NCBI GenBank assembly: GCA_964402695.1
Contig: CAYODK010000004.1
Location: forward strand, 7,676-71,675
Direction of reading: 5' to 3'
Length of the DNA stretch: 64,000 bases
From: an uncultured Verrucomicrobiota bacterium
Lineage (GTDB): Bacteria > Verrucomicrobiota > Kiritimatiellia > PWTM01
Within the stretch, counting starts at the first letter, position 1, and each line of letters opens with the position of its first letter. The notes under the pieces are model-generated. The model saw only the letters and a program-made list of their open reading frames with translations, did not search any database and was not told the origin of the DNA. The translations under genes and the position numbers were made by a program. Positions 4,401-15,118 of the stretch are shown here, piece after piece.

Positions 4401-4670
4401 TACATCAGCCACCTGAAGTACCACGCGGACAAGCCGCGCCGCGGCGCCACGGAGGGCATGAACGCCGAACTGGTCGCCTTCGCGTACGAGAAGACGCGCG
4501 ATCCGAAGTACCTGGAGTTGCTGACCGACATGCTCGCCGGCCACTTCGACAAGCCGCCCAGCGGGAACGGCAAGTCGTTCAGCCAGTCCGTGCGCCAGAC
4601 GGTCTTCGGCCTGGACCGGATGACCGATGCAACATTCAACAGCCAACCTCCAATCTCCAAGATCCAATGA
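1401..4670 (+). CDS. Large secreted multidomain protein: jelly-roll (EAED) module, FN3-like module, RIFT-barrel and alpha/alpha toroid, YetA/PcRGLX (PL26)-like
   Basis: Signal peptide; VVGMPFARGTL...LRLLD...PLQAEAFSRWSDGSVK is typical of the RIFT barrel; WGWMHFGDW...GNNEYD and HSTVD occur in the toroid region. Confidence 0.65.
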   Translation: MNRTLRRWVVAAGCAAAAGWGGRAPGAPPTEGIIHEAEDIARPADAWRRDQGSADRWMLWTREADIEKKRSRGAVMASPSVAKDRASPAEGAPPLHCVVTNLAPGPYRVVLSGPGRPLAYSPDGASWVRYQGGELTLGPVDLPDGRFEIWIDDRYAHPPGNPGPGYFDYIRFLPMSREEFRASGPRPLLPPPLEFRDFAAWCTRSGAVSLCWTTSRAVEGQRLTCTSGDGQTREFAVAGGPDRNHRVLLDGLAPVREYRARVAVDDAGRPAESEPFAFHAAPPRPPPTVALSIPLAVPEPTPAPRGRAPAVVGMPFARGTLAQPGDLRLLDAGGAETPLQAEAFSRWSDGSVKLATLSFPVDAPTGAATVCRLETRPGGGTGAASGRDTVRIEETADAWLVRGEGLQFDLGKKVPALFDNVGFDRNRDSTVSAAERVAAAPRLANLRLQTADDANLTCGAPERFEVECNGPVRAVLRWSGPLVDEAGRPGWAYVIRATLFAGIPEMRFDVTVINDNPEPKYREIKSLALRVPVEGEGGVRGALGGRAPVPVGHADGIWVLQQDERHVRLWDAGAPVERVEPGVAVAVDAKARVMVAMRDFREAYPSGFAVKPDGLHVRLLPPLPGDAYDDANALERLRLFGWCRGGRYVVKAGQAIRKEIVVRYGAADDATDPAAFAGWAGAALVPQAPPAHLCGSGLLSRRIFPRTPGLWDAYERSFEAGFRASLEDREKQRTWGWMHFGDWFGERLLNYGNNEYDMAWAMALQWARTGDRRLLDRGIEMARHHSTVDTVHGRFSDAWNGLVYEHSFNHVGLEVPRDDPRLKEGLLAKYVAEYGAGMLGGAIDRQGHVFQPGNWICAALTGDGWLREVATRVCDNQAARLTPAFDFSIERAGGWPIINMAMAYHYSGDPYYLNAARIMVDRALERQDPVSGGWLHRHAGGESGGETGMGGKAFAVAILSHGLLRYLEQEPRPHPDVEHMLVRGADFLRDHAWVPGKGFRYISHLKYHADKPRRGATEGMNAELVAFAYEKTRDPKYLELLTDMLAGHFDKPPSGNGKSFSQSVRQTVFGLDRMTDATFNSQPPISKIQ

Positions 4671-4975
4671 TGGAGGGCCGAGCTACGCGAGGCCGGGAGA
4701 GATGATTCTCCGCGGGCGTGGCGTTCGGGCTCGCGGTAGCTCGCCCCTCCAACACGCGACGATCGGACGTGCGTTCCGGCCGGCCTTCGTAGAAGCGGCG
4801 CCCTCGCCGCTTCCTTCGGGGATCCCCCTGCACGCGGCGGGGGCGCCGCGTCTACGGCATTCCGCCGTTGGATGTTCGATGTTGGGTGTTGGTTGTTGGA
4901 TGTTGCTCCTGGCCTTCGCGTCCTTTGCGTCTTTGTGTCGTCCCTCCTTAGGGGCAGACAGAGTGTCTGCCCCAC
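4630..4975. repeat. Mosaic intergenic repeat nest (BIME-like): inverted heptamer tracts, two inverted REP doublets and a family A REP
   Basis: CAANNNN x5 at 4630-4667 versus TTGNNNN x5 at 4868-4905; TGGAGGG-type REP pair at 4671-4695 and 4727-4751; GTAG-type pair at 4789-4813 and 4832-4855; GGGGCAGACAGAGTGTCTGCCCCAC at 4951-4975. Confidence 0.8.
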
Positions 4976-11740: not shown

Positions 11741-12514
11741 ATGAGATTCGCCGGGAAGACCATCCTTGTCACCGGTGCGGGAAAGAACACCGGGTTGGGC
11801 ATCGCGGCAGGCTTCGCCGCGGCGGGCGCGACCGTCTTTGTCAACGACGCGACGCCGGAGGGGGCCGGCCGCGCGGCGGCGGCGCTGCGACGGAAGGGGT
11901 GGAAACGCGTGCACGCCGCCCCGGCGGACGTCGGCGACGCGAAGGCCGTGGAGGCGATGTTCCGGGCGATCCGGCGTCGCGCGAAGCGGCTGGACATCCT
12001 GGTCAACAACGCGGCGCACCTCGGGGTCGGGCCGGAATTCCTCGACACGGAACCGGCGTTCTTCGAATCCGTCGTGCGGGTGAACCTGCTCGGCACGTTC
12101 CAGGTCTCGCGGCTCGCGGCGCGATGGATGAAGGACACCGGCGGCGGGGCCATCGTGAACATCGGGTCGAACGTCTCCACCCGCGCGATCCACAAGCGCG
12201 CCGCCTACCTCGCCAGCAAGGGCGGGATCGACGCGCTGACCCTGGCGATGGCCGTCGATCTCGCGCCGCACGGCATCCGCGTCAACGAGGTGGCGCCGGG
12301 CTACATTCACAGCGACCGTTGGCTCACGCTGCCGGCGGAGCACGCGAAACGGCGGCGCGCGAACATCCCGCTCGGTCGCGAGGCGATGCCGGAGGATATT
12401 GCCGAGGCCGTGATGTTCCTCGCCTCCGACCGGGCCGGGAACGTGACCGGCTCGCGGCTGGTGGTCGACGGCGGCTGCACGGCCCAGCACATGCCGAAGG
12501 ACGTGGACGTGTGA
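11741..12514 (+). CDS. SDR family oxidoreductase (putative sugar dehydrogenase)
   Basis: TGAGKNTGLG, DILVNNA, YLASK, VNEVAPG and VVDGG motifs. Confidence 0.92.
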   Translation: MRFAGKTILVTGAGKNTGLGIAAGFAAAGATVFVNDATPEGAGRAAAALRRKGWKRVHAAPADVGDAKAVEAMFRAIRRRAKRLDILVNNAAHLGVGPEFLDTEPAFFESVVRVNLLGTFQVSRLAARWMKDTGGGAIVNIGSNVSTRAIHKRAAYLASKGGIDALTLAMAVDLAPHGIRVNEVAPGYIHSDRWLTLPAEHAKRRRANIPLGREAMPEDIAEAVMFLASDRAGNVTGSRLVVDGGCTAQHMPKDVDV

Positions 12515-13965
12515 GCGCGGACGCCCAGGACGACGCCCGGGTCTGCTGTAGCCGCGACGGGTCGTCGCGGCCGGTACGCGCCCCGGAGCCCGCATCGGCC
12601 GCGACCGCCGGTCGCGGCTACAGCGACACATCCACGGGTACGGTCTTCTGTAGCCGCGACGGGTCGTCGCGGCGGGCGGACGCCCCGGAGCCGACCCGTC
12701 CGGGCTACAAGTGGGAGCTGCTCGCGCTGCTCTTTTTCGCGTTCTTCTTCCACCAGGGCGATCGCGCGATCTACGGCGTCGTGCTGCCCGCGATCAAGAC
12801 GGACCTCGGCGTGTCGGACAGCCAGCTCGGCCTCGTCGGCAGCGTGCTCTTCGCGACGCTGGCGCTGATGATGCCGGTTGCCGGCTACGTCGGCGACATC
12901 TGGAACCGCAAGCGGATCATCGTCGGGAGCCTGCTGTTCTGGAGCCTGGCGACGATGCTGACGGGTTTCGCGGGCGGCGTGGGCGGACTGATCGCGTTCC
13001 GCAGCGTTGCGACGGCGGGCGGCGAGTCGTTCTACGCGCCCGCGGCGTACCCGCTGATCGCGGCGCACCACACGCGGACGCGGTCCATCGCGCTGTCCGT
13101 CCACCAGGCCTCGCTCTACATCGGCGTCATGGTCAGCGGGTTCATCGGCGGGTTCATCGCGGACCAGTGGGGCTGGCGGTCCGCCTTCTACGTCTTCGGC
13201 GGCGGGGGCATCGTGCTCGGCCTCGTGCTGGCGGTCCGCCTGCTCGACGCCCCGCCCCCGGCGCGCGCGGAGGGAGGCGGGACCGTCTCCCCGTTGCGGG
13301 CGCTCGGCGTGCTGTTCCGGTCGCCGTCGGCGCTGCTGCTGACGGCCGGCTTCACGGCGATCGTCTTCGTCAACAACGCCTACGTCGTGTGGGCGCCGGT
13401 GTTCCTGAAGGAGCGGTTCGACCTGTCGCTCGCGCAGGCCGGCGGCTACGCGATGTCGTGGCACCACGCGGCCGCTCTCGGGGGCATCCTGCTCGGCGGC
13501 TGGCTGTCGGACCGTCTCGCCGCGGCCCGGCCGGTCTTCCGGCTGCAGCTGATGTCGGGCGCGATGCTGCTCGGCGCGCCGGTGATCGTCCTGCTGGGGC
13601 GGGCGGACGCGATCGCCGCCGCGTGCGCGGCCATGGCGGGCTTCGGCTTCTTCCGCGGGCTCTATGAGGCCAACACCCACGCGGCGCTCTTCGAGGTCAT
13701 CGCGCCGAAGTTCCGCGCCTCGGCGGTCGGGATCATGACGATGCTCGCCTTCCTCGCCGGGTCGGTCTCGCCGTGGCTGCTCGGCCGCATGCGCGAGACC
13801 CACGCCGCCGGACAGGGCCTCGGTCTCGGCTTCTCCGCCCTCGGCGGGGCCTACGTGATCGGCGGCATCGCGGTCCTGTGCGCGGTGCTGTTCACGTTCC
13901 GGAGGGACCGGGTCGAAGAAGAAGGAGAAGTGGAAAACTCCGAACTCCAAGGAAGTGGGAAGTGA
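12511..13965 (+). CDS. MFS transporter (sugar-acid/ACS-like) with a REP-derived N-terminal extension
   Basis: GTG start overlaps the SDR stop (GTGA); QGDRAIYGVVLPAIKTDLG, GDIWNRKR, GESFYAPA and GGWLSDR motifs; about 12 hydrophobic segments. Confidence 0.9.
   Translation: MSADAQDDARVCCSRDGSSRPVRAPEPASAATAGRGYSDTSTGTVFCSRDGSSRRADAPEPTRPGYKWELLALLFFAFFFHQGDRAIYGVVLPAIKTDLGVSDSQLGLVGSVLFATLALMMPVAGYVGDIWNRKRIIVGSLLFWSLATMLTGFAGGVGGLIAFRSVATAGGESFYAPAAYPLIAAHHTRTRSIALSVHQASLYIGVMVSGFIGGFIADQWGWRSAFYVFGGGGIVLGLVLAVRLLDAPPPARAEGGGTVSPLRALGVLFRSPSALLLTAGFTAIVFVNNAYVVWAPVFLKERFDLSLAQAGGYAMSWHHAAALGGILLGGWLSDRLAAARPVFRLQLMSGAMLLGAPVIVLLGRADAIAAACAAMAGFGFFRGLYEANTHAALFEVIAPKFRASAVGIMTMLAFLAGSVSPWLLGRMRETHAAGQGLGLGFSALGGAYVIGGIAVLCAVLFTFRRDRVEEEGEVENSELQGSGK
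12546..12700. repeat. Cluster of three GTAG-type REPs inside the 5' part of the MFS CDS
   Basis: GTAGCCGCGACGGGTCGTCGCGG at 12548-12570 and 12650-12672 (identical); inverted copy CCGCGACCGCCGGTCGCGGCTAC at 12599-12621. Confidence 0.85.
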
Positions 13966-14190
13966 GGAAGAAAGAAGAAGGAAGAAGTCGGCGCATCTCC
14001 GGGTCCGGCTCGCCGCATGGATCGCTCGAACGGCCGGCCCGGTGGTCCGGCCCCACCCACCGACCCCGTGGGATTCGTGGCAGAGCCGGGCCGCTGCCCC
14101 GGCCGAACAGAAGGCCCGTGCGTGCCGCTCCTTCCTTCTTCTTCTCCTTGGTCCTTGTCACTTCCTTGGAGTTTGGAGTTTCTCACTTGC
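13928..14190. mobile_element. MITE-like element with imperfect terminal inverted repeats
   Basis: AAACTCCGAACTCCAAGGAAGTG (13935-13957) versus CACTTCCTTGGAGTTTGGAGTTT (14159-14181), a 22/23 inverted match, extended inward by purine-rich and pyrimidine-rich tracts. Confidence 0.5.
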
Positions 14191-14206
14191 CGTCGCGGGT
14201 GTCCGT

Positions 14207-15118
14207 ATGACGATCACCTGGCTTGGACAATCCGGCTACTTGCTCGAAGGCGCGGGGGTGCGGATCGCGATCGATCCCTACCTGAGCGACGCCGTGGAGC
14301 GGGCGCAGGGGCTGAAGCGCCTCGTCGCGCCGCCGCTGACCGTCGCACAGCTGGCGCCGGACGTTCTGCTGATCACGCACGACCATCTCGACCACTTCGA
14401 TCCGGACACGGTGCCTGCGGTCATGAGATCGTTCCCGGCCTGCCGCCTCGCCGGCCCGGCCAGCGTCAGGGCGCACGGCGCGCGGATCGGTCTGGCGGAC
14501 GCGCGGCTCGTGGCGCTCGATGCCGGCGGCTCTGCGTGCCTCGGCGGCGTTGAAGTCACCGCCACGCCCGCGCGCCACAGCGATCCCGCCGCGGTCGGCC
14601 TGCTGGTCCGCGCCGACGGCGTCCTCCTCTGGTTCAGCGGCGACACCCTCTACGGTCCGGACCTGGCCGGCGATGTGCTCCGTCTTGCGGGCCGGGCGCC
14701 GGATGCGGCGTTCGTCTGCATGAACGGGCGCCTCGGCAACATGGGGGTCGACGACGCCGTCCGCCTCCTCGCGGAGATGCGGCCGGCCCTCGCCGTGCCG
14801 TCGCATTACGGCATGTTCGCCGAGAACACCGCGGCCCCCGCGCCATTCGCCGCCGCGTGCGCGCGCGCCGGGCTGCGGACCCTGGTTCTGGACCCCGGCA
14901 TGCCCGTCGCCTGCTTCTTGGAGGGCCGAGCTACGCGAGGCCGCGACCCGGTTCCACCGCAGCCGTGGACCGGGCCCGAGTCGGGGCAGACAGGAGTGTC
15001 TGCCCCACAACCGATGCATCGGGTTGCGGGAGGGACGGACTTCGGCGAGCTCAGTCGAGCCGCGGCCCCGCCGCCCGCTGGAGTCGATTCCGCAAGGACG
15101 AAAGGGACGCCCGCATGA
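14207..15118 (+). CDS. MBL-fold metallo-hydrolase (UlaG-like, putative lactonase) with a repeat-derived C-terminal tail
   Basis: ITWLGQSG, IDPYLSD, THDHLDHFD, WFSGDT and PSHYGMF motifs; stop overlaps the next ATG (ATGA). Confidence 0.85.
   Translation: MTITWLGQSGYLLEGAGVRIAIDPYLSDAVERAQGLKRLVAPPLTVAQLAPDVLLITHDHLDHFDPDTVPAVMRSFPACRLAGPASVRAHGARIGLADARLVALDAGGSACLGGVEVTATPARHSDPAAVGLLVRADGVLLWFSGDTLYGPDLAGDVLRLAGRAPDAAFVCMNGRLGNMGVDDAVRLLAEMRPALAVPSHYGMFAENTAAPAPFAAACARAGLRTLVLDPGMPVACFLEGRATRGRDPVPPQPWTGPESGQTGVSAPQPMHRVAGGTDFGELSRAAAPPPAGVDSARTKGTPA
14920..15060. repeat. REP cluster within the 3' end of the MBL hydrolase ORF
   Basis: GGAGGGCCGAGCTACGCGAGGCCG at 14920-14943 (identical to 4672-4695) and GGGGCAGACAGGAGTGTCTGCCCCAC at 14983-15008. 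Confidence 0.85.

Follow-up and report, generated by a model that had tools for sequence, protein, structure and literature searches.

Background

Repetitive extragenic palindromic (REP) sequences of the GTAG and CGTC types were catalogued in 2013 by Di Nocera, De Gregorio & Rocco, whose survey includes GTAG REPs that lie in frame within genes of several species, Opitutus terrae, a verrucomicrobium, having more of them than any other (PMC3733652). The present analysis concerns three GTAG-headed REP palindromes in a 64,000-nt stretch of DNA (hereafter "the window", in whose positions all coordinates are given unless a locus is named) from an uncultured Verrucomicrobiota bacterium (GenBank assembly GCA_964402695.1, contig CAYODK010000004.1), where they are situated at the junction between a gene for a short-chain dehydrogenase (SDR) and a gene for a sugar-type transporter of the major facilitator superfamily (MFS). 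We consider it probable, and hold the view with a good deal of confidence, that the transporter is read from a GTG codon at 12511 through the three-REP cluster and that its N-terminal tail is REP-encoded.

The intercistronic REPs of the Escherichia coli malE-malF pair were reportedly found by Newbury et al. in 1987 to stabilise the upstream mRNA, and Liang et al. are said to have dealt in 2015 with REPs near stop codons. Among the Rickettsia palindromic elements (RPE), RPE-1 measures 100-150 bp. According to the later survey of GTAG REPs, it was with RPE-1, a longer kind of palindromic insertion, that in-frame elements were first recognised within genes of Rickettsia (PMC3733652).

Where translation of the transporter begins

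The SDR gene (11741-12514, forward strand; 257 aa; Pfam adh_short_C2, E=2e-57) is the upstream cistron and ends in TGA at 12512-12514. The MFS gene (12511-13965, forward strand; 484 aa with the stop; Pfam MFS_1, E=1e-49) begins, in its longest reading, with the GTG at 12511-12513, which overlaps the SDR stop as GTGA; the MFS_1 match itself covers residues 74-421 (12730-13773) and thus starts only at residue 74 of this reading. In orthologous contigs the overlap between MFS start and SDR stop is 4 nt wherever both genes occur, and all 10 of the junctions read have it, nine as GTGA and one as ATGA. The first ~10 residues of the leader are, by eye, alike among the closer orthologues (VSADAQDDAR, VSVNGQGDAN, VSVNDHGDAR, VSDGADHAGG). 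Nine nucleotides upstream of the GTG, and within the SDR coding sequence, there is a purine run, AAGGA (12497-12501, forward strand), which the closest orthologues also have, yet which is constrained by SDR coding too; read from the sequence, it is a putative Shine-Dalgarno element.

An earlier note on this DNA, made from the sequence without database searches, had proposed that the GTG coupled to the SDR stop is the only plausible start and that about 65 aa precede the motif YKWELL. Counted from 12511, exactly 65 codons stand before Tyr66 of this motif, and a codon scan together with the conserved overlap bears out the choice of start: there is no in-frame ATG, GTG, TTG, CTG, ATT, ATC or ATA between 12514 and 12717. 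For the stretch beyond 12700, where the note had placed the non-canonical start whose use would speak against it, the in-frame scan up to 12717 gives none of these codons. The only near-cognate in-frame codons are ACG at 12634 and 12640, both upstream of the third REP, and the first in-frame CTG, at 12718, would as a start codon drop Y66, W68 and E69. These three residues belong to the conserved motif RPGYKWE (codons 12697-12717, forward strand, delimited by homologue alignment), which lies just ahead of the first transmembrane helix, and because none of them varies among 45 aligned homologues, the ribosome must be in the correct frame by the time it reaches 12697-12717.

Anatomy and predicted fold of the REP array

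The three REP palindromes lie within 12540-12692, between the GTG and the RPGYKWE motif. The pattern GTAGCCGCGACGGGTCGTCGCGGC is matched exactly at 12548-12571 and 12650-12673 on the forward strand and, with three mismatches that all fall in the loop, at 12598-12621 on the reverse strand; it has 0 matches in 100 dinucleotide-preserving shuffles. Each element consists of 24 nt, i.e., GTAG followed by a stem-loop with a G+C-rich stem of 9-10 bp and a loop of 1-3 nt, and all three copies have the size and shape of a GTAG REP, which is an imperfect palindrome of 20-40 nt with GTAG at one end. As delimited by pattern match and repeat search, the REP1 unit spans 12540-12590 on the forward strand (hairpin 12548-12571, GTAG head at 12548) and encodes VCCSRDGSSRPVRAPEP; REP2, the inverted copy, spans 12598-12621 on the reverse strand (GTAG head at 12621) and encodes ATAGRGYS in the MFS frame, the inverted copy with its surroundings being read as ASAATAGRGYSD; and the REP3 unit spans 12642-12692 on the forward strand (hairpin 12650-12673) and encodes VFCSRDGSSRRADAPEP. 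The two direct 51-nt units are 88% identical, start 102 nt apart and have 26 nt as their longest identical run. Translated in the transporter frame, the array gives VCCSRDGSSRPVRAPEP - ASAATAGRGYSD - TSTGT - VFCSRDGSSRRADAPEP; one of the three frames is closed across the array by the TAG within GTAG, and the transporter uses one of the remaining two. The earlier note had seen CSRDGSSR...APEP encoded twice by two GTAG REPs that flank an inverted third, and this is precisely what the pattern search returns. Its term "duplicated REP unit" is right as to the REP origin of the stretch and can be refined, the arrangement being more than a duplicated unit: a typical cluster of a dispersed family, with a tail-to-tail doublet and a third copy that makes up a head-to-head pair.

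REP1 and REP2 make up a tail-to-tail doublet (12545-12624, forward strand) with 40-nt arms (12545-12584 and 12585-12624) that are 83% complementary. An inverted pair of REPs with the characteristic spacing and a single long hairpin is what defines a REPIN (REP doublet forming a hairpin), and this doublet has all three features. The RNA of 12495-12725 has a predicted minimum free energy of -140.7 kcal/mol (z = -4.1 vs shuffles), and in the predicted fold REP1 is paired to REP2 in one long hairpin beginning 35 nt past the GTG, while REP3 is paired to 12683-12709. The latter stretch (forward strand), identified among the inverted pairs as well as in the predicted fold, is 78% complementary to REP3, overlaps the RPGY codons and ends in GCTACA. 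We also observed that the native PEPTRPGYK codons of this interval (...CCGACCCGTCCGGGCTACA) and the 5' portion of the REP show 78-89% complementarity, and that the GCTACA end resembles an inverted REP head; REP-free orthologues likewise have ...CCGCGCTACAAG. To judge from this resemblance, 12683-12709 could be a nucleation or target site that attracts REP insertion.

A promoter and terminator scan gave no terminator-like T run at the REP hairpins, and its sole terminator-like match (12711-12725) is no more than shuffled sequence would be expected to give. In Rfam there is no family match for the hairpins, a permissive scan of 12200-14300 giving only a chance match far below threshold. The 57-aa REP-encoded peptide, a query too short and too low in complexity for the tool used, matched nothing at E<=10 in a set of 5.8 billion proteins.

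Orthologous alleles with zero to three REPs at one site

Orthologues of the SDR-MFS junction, cited here by locus labels, carry different numbers of REPs at a single site. The site is empty in L005, L006/L007, L008 and L009, and also in L097/L098, which come from a lake metagenome and have a core 95% identical to that of the window. One REP is present in L001 (94% identical), in the form of a REP3-type unit of 51 nt (17 codons), seen as a gap when L001 is aligned with the empty-site L097, and one REP each, different from that of L001 and located at the REP1 codon position, is present in L004 and L055. L002/L003 have two (REP1 and the inverted REP2), with REP1 at the same codon position as in L004 and L055, and the window has REP1, REP2 and REP3. 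The differences between alleles are confined to the segment between the leader and the near-invariant RPxYKWE, and the distance from the start to the Tyr takes seven values (41, 59, 62, 92, 113, 149 and 206 nt), all of them in one phase. The locus thus has the makings of a repeat-decorated protein, with REPs between a conserved start and a conserved body, a frame that is kept and orthologues in which the site is empty, and this comparison of orthologue N-termini upholds the claim of the earlier note that the N-terminus is built from REPs.

Given a conserved start and leader, the lack of any start farther downstream and a series of zero to three copies that keeps the frame, the ribosome must read the REPs if the transporter is made at all. 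A functional gene (see below), the need for a start upstream of 12706, the presence of only one such start, at 12511, and the in-phase position of the REPs together amount to strong indirect evidence that the REPs are translated.

By its appearance the array of the window looks like a doublet of the L002 type joined to a single copy of the L001 type; a local duplication is another history with which the 102-nt offset of the direct units would agree. Between REPs at corresponding orthologous sites (L004 1397 vs L055 4170; window 12548 vs L002 6038), the flanks are almost identical and the differences fall chiefly in the loop and the apical base pair (GGAGC against CGCCG and GGGTC against CGCCG, respectively); the head of the L002 REP is GTGG, not GTAG. 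Loop differences between near-identical flanks suggest conversion among family members or re-insertion at the same site.

The transporter protein and its tail

There are 1064 homologues of the MFS protein at E<=1e-20. The core open reading frame is intact over 419 codons, and the ratio of nonsynonymous to synonymous substitution rates (dN/dS) for the core of the window allele is 0.109 vs L001, 0.10 vs L097 and 0.12 vs L002, with dS between 0.21 and 0.36; purifying selection of this order (dN/dS ~0.1) means that the gene is functional in the REP-bearing lineages. A model from AlphaFold2, made with 45 aligned homologues, has a predicted TM-score (pTM) of 0.81. Its per-residue confidence (pLDDT) is 35-55, without secondary structure, from residue 1 to ~60 and mostly 85-98 from residue 66 on, so that the N-terminal tail is predicted to be disordered and the core to adopt a confident MFS fold.

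The REP-encoded tail comprises residues 11-61, i.e., 51 residues, and the closest allele with an empty site, L097, has a leader of 17 residues, which the tail of the window allele exceeds by ~48. The tail is rich in Ser, Ala, Arg and Asp, with nine basic and nine acidic residues. The effect of the REP tail on the protein is probably close to neutral, because the REPs would be absorbed by a tail that is disordered in the model, balanced in charge and not conserved.

Dispersal of the REP family

An exact scan for the REP core GTAGCCGCGACNNNNNGTCGCGGC, covering one genome per species, gave at least 87 matching stretches, concentrated in a few metagenome-assembled genomes (MAGs) of Verrucomicrobiota. 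Among the matches listed, ~30 loci belong to CAYXFW01 and ~10 to CAYRFK01, others belong to VGWF01, CALKUH01 and JAHJJH01, and the core is present also in some Alphaproteobacteria and other MAGs. Upstream, the copies have the consensus gGtCt(g/t)CT in common. In the loci from Verrucomicrobiota MAGs they are repeatedly paired tail to tail, with spacers of 23-26 nt, and head-to-head doublets are found as well; the spacer of the head-to-head doublet in L058, ctacagcggacatcctgggttcacggtcttctGTAG, closely resembles the one between REP2 and REP3 of the window. In the stem of 56 copies from the Verrucomicrobiota loci, the apical pair consists of C:G (47 copies) or G:C (9 copies) and is never unpaired, and the hairpin is therefore maintained; the remaining stem positions were fixed by the search pattern and are hence uninformative on covariation.

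The family has three copies in the window, all at the SDR-MFS junction, and L001 and L002, each a locus of 13 kb, likewise have no members of it other than those at the junction. Spikes in the read depth of the source metagenome run (X1) at the REPs point to further copies in that metagenome, which are not assignable to the genome of the window. Among ~40 other REP clusters no other clear intragenic case was found by a crude test of the flanks (open frames and the phase of G+C at third codon positions, which is not a gene prediction); the test suggests that these clusters are intergenic, though it is too coarse for a dependable intragenic fraction.

A tblastn search with 10 RAYT/TIRYT sequences from PMC3733652 (RAYT, REP-associated tyrosine transposase) found no RAYT in the window or in the fetched Verrucomicrobiota loci, and because none was found there, we infer the mobility of the REPs at this locus only from its empty and filled sites. 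RAYT homologues were detected only in two loci of other phyla, L069, from a Chloroflexia MAG, and L021, from Roseiarcus, both of which have the same REP core. In L069 (892-918; 1059-1478) the core is a double-headed palindrome immediately next to, at ~140 nt from, a RAYT-like Y1 transposase gene, and in L021 (123-571; 3608-3961) two copies of the core lie ~3 kb from the RAYT homologue.

Weighing the explanations

Our best explanation is that three REPs of a dispersed Verrucomicrobiota GTAG-REP family settled within the 5' end of the MFS gene, where a tail-to-tail doublet and a third copy, making a head-to-head pair, would form the present cluster. The landing zone would be a non-conserved segment of the cytoplasmic N-terminal tail, between the conserved start and RPxYKWE, and every insertion, duplication and deletion at the site would have kept the frame, the one in use avoiding the TAG of GTAG. 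Ribosomes would start at GTG 12511, probably coupled to SDR termination, and then read through the REPs, giving a product that would be a normal transporter apart from its longer tail. It appears that this tail is tolerated rather than useful, and the stable RNA hairpins may modulate how much transporter is made relative to the SDR, most likely by reducing it.

Several points weigh against this explanation. Stop codons are missing from two frames out of three in the array, so that their absence is by itself weak evidence. No RNA run holding the locus sequence was found, and translation of the REPs is accordingly something that we infer. The predicted fold of -140.7 kcal/mol, so near the start, could strongly depress translation. 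The common phase of the seven length classes, which favours the explanation, implies no fewer than six indels with lengths divisible by 3; if the segment were untranslated and the indels independent and unselected, the chance of this would be ~(1/3)^6 = 0.0014, a figure that is indicative only because the indels are not fully independent, REP1 being apparently orthologous in the window, L002, L004 and L055. Gene calls, moreover, were the route by which some of the alleles were retrieved; they played no part for L055, found by a DNA pattern, or for L097/L098, found by a tblastn search with the core. Finally, the published survey cautions that many of the REPs annotated at N-termini probably precede the actual start codon (PMC3733652), an escape that at this locus would need a non-canonical start codon.

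If translation did begin after the REPs at such a codon, the REPs would be an untranslated spacer and the 65-aa tail an annotation artefact, which would be in keeping with those published cases, probably extragenic, and with the mere 10-20 residues that most homologues have ahead of YKWELL. The in-frame codon scan led us to reject this alternative, which we regard as very unlikely: from 12514 to 12717 it offers no ATG, GTG, TTG, CTG or ATH, the ACG codons precede REP3, and initiation at CTG 12718 would remove the invariant residues. The upstream start and leader are also conserved, and an untranslated spacer would not need all seven length classes to be in frame. That REP invasion has silenced the transporter, leaving an incipient pseudogene with a leftover open frame, has even less to recommend it. 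The very strong predicted structure beside the start would suit such a history, as would the lack of any other family copy in the 64-kb window, by which the present ones could be relics; the intact core with its dN/dS ~0.1 at dS 0.21-0.36, on which ground this alternative was rejected, the persistence of REP-bearing alleles in several diverged lineages and the confident, complete MFS fold given by AlphaFold2 speak against it. Repeat collapse or expansion during assembly, as a source of the triple REP, can hardly be credited. The repeats are short and nearly identical, and the depth spikes attest to other copies in the metagenome, but one Logan contig of X1 spans 12300-12673, with all three REPs, and a second 12644-13000, both with zero mismatches, so that the REP1-REP2-REP3 arrangement is not an assembly artefact, and on this evidence the alternative was rejected. 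The identical run of 26 nt is also shorter than the 31-letter index words of Logan (taken as the assembly word size), and the one-copy and two-copy alleles come from independent assemblies.

A different kind of proposal is that the array is a selected regulatory device, in which the copy number of 0-3 sets the ratio of SDR to transporter by way of hairpins that slow or uncouple ribosomes, shield the SDR mRNA from 3' exonucleases or serve as RNase processing sites. Pausing of ribosomes or processing at the hairpins, so as to tune the transporter level relative to the SDR, had been raised as a possibility in the earlier note. The proposal is compatible with translation through the REPs, adding a function to the same anatomy, and draws on the very stable structure predicted 35 nt past the start (-140.7 kcal/mol, z -4.1), on the recurrence of REPs at the exact junction in lineages dS 0.2-0.6 apart, on the covariation of the apical pair, by which the hairpin itself is maintained, and on the argument that REPs, being largely transcribed, may act after transcription (PMC3733652). 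Close relatives without any REP (L097/L098, L008, L006) nevertheless have unchanged synteny and coupling, a constraint on the hairpin is equally explained by its recognition as DNA by a transposase, and the hairpins have neither a terminator-like T run nor an Rfam match. By analogy with enterobacterial intercistronic REPs an effect on translation rate, SDR coupling or mRNA decay is plausible; we think it unlikely that the array was selected as such a device. We are more doubtful still of an extension of this proposal, according to which the junction is a preferred site of REP landing and expansion, its RP(G/R)Y codons (..CCGSGCTACA..) mimicking an inverted head and pairing with REP3, and copy number is a selected, heritable coupling dial. 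If that were true, REP copies in a translated leader would set the amount of transporter per SDR lineage by lineage.

Gene order and other repeats near the locus

The G+C content of the window is ~70%, and the closest named relatives of its proteins come from Opitutaceae and Verrucomicrobiota MAGs. The order of an AraC-type regulator gene (reverse strand), the SDR gene (forward), the MFS gene (forward) and a gene of the metallo-beta-lactamase fold is kept in every sufficiently long orthologous contig fetched, and the 257-aa SDR orthologues occupy the same place in all loci.

A long imperfect inverted repeat with purine-rich arms of the type GAAGAAGGAG... is formed by 13905-13987 and 14128-14188, with a 35-nt core that is 86% complementary, plus flanking arms. 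The left arm supplies the codons for the final ~20 residues of the MFS protein (...EEEGEVENSELQGSGK), and the right arm is located a short way upstream of the following gene (ATG 14208). Only the window has the right arm; at its place L001, L002 and L097 have different sequence, and L004, L005 and L008 have no spacer between the genes. The spacer between the MFS gene and the beta-lactamase-fold gene, ~190-240 nt long, has two further palindromes, G+C-rich but of a different type, GGCCGGCCCGGTGGTCCGGCC and GCCGGGCCGCTGCCCCGGC (window 14020-14110); it is common to the window and its closest relatives L001, L002 and L097, is absent from more distant orthologues, and probably represents another insertion of repeats, on the far side of the MFS gene.

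Farther upstream, an intergenic repeat cluster at 4660-4900 contains a tail-to-tail pair of a different GTAG REP (4789-4813, forward strand, and 4831-4855, reverse strand) and an inverted pair around GAGCTAC/GTAGCTC (4673-4687 and 4737-4752), and is bracketed by A/T-richer inverted arms (caacctccaatctccaag... / ...gttggatgttcgatgttgg). A 28-nt repeat, TGGAGGGCCGAGCTACGCGAGGCCG(G/C)GA, is found at 4671-4698 and 14919-14946 in copies that are 96% identical. The second copy is near the 3' end of the beta-lactamase-fold gene, whose frame continues to 15118, ~60 codons beyond the 240-aa L001 orthologue, and may be another repeat-made extension.

Comparison with known systems

The settling of mobile palindromes in frame within genes is a known kind of event, and the locus reveals no new element type or mechanism; its own merit consists in a comparative answer to the usual doubt as to whether REPs annotated at N-termini are translated, and in the series of copy numbers. 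In annotating the locus, the long gene call that starts at the GTG should be retained, not trimmed. The locus is also a documented example of mobile palindromes lengthening the disordered tail of a protein, and its 0-1-2-3 allelic series could be used to measure the effect of coding-region REP hairpins on translation.

The closest parallel is with the intragenic REPs of O. terrae, which are likewise short, GTAG-headed palindromes in frame in real genes, as singles, dimers and groups, some of them N-terminal, in a host of the same phylum as that of the window. Among the published cases dimers and groups encode 20-30 aa and clusters 43-82 aa, as compared with 51 REP-coded residues in the window (PMC3733652). 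The REP peptides of O. terrae (GTGVPPV, VGPALAAG, VAGV...) are unlike CSRDGSSR and AGRGYS of the window, and the REPs of the window therefore belong to another family, membership in the O. terrae families listed in PMC3733652 being rejected. The doubt that attaches to the published N-terminal cases is answered at this locus by the start-codon scan and by orthologues in which the site is empty or occupied, and the window family adds a series of 0, 1, 2 and 3 copies at a single site.

The RPE, the classic instance of in-frame insertion, are, as described in PMC3733652 and PMC3184786 (both citing Ogata et al. 2000), also palindromic mobile repeats in frame, with inserted peptides outside the conserved fold of a host protein that stays functional. 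RPE-1 differs in that its sequence is unrelated to the window REP and its host is an alphaproteobacterium with an obligate intracellular life; proteins with RPE are known to be expressed, according to PMC3733652, whereas the protein of the window is a predicted one. With the REPIN/RAYT systems (Bertels & Rainey 2011; Nunvar et al. 2010), as they are cited in PMC3733652, the array has in common inverted doublets, a long hairpin, dispersal and the GTAG head, but in neither the window nor the fetched Verrucomicrobiota loci was a RAYT gene found, whereas such systems have a cognate RAYT gene in the genome, as a rule with REPs on its flanks. Like the E. coli malE-malF REPs and the related bacterial interspersed mosaic elements (BIMEs), the hairpins of the window stand between the conserved parts of two co-transcribed genes, and differential expression of the two is plausible in both. 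The E. coli REPs, however, are untranslated and lie past the stop of the upstream gene, whereas those of the window lie past the start of the downstream gene and must be translated.

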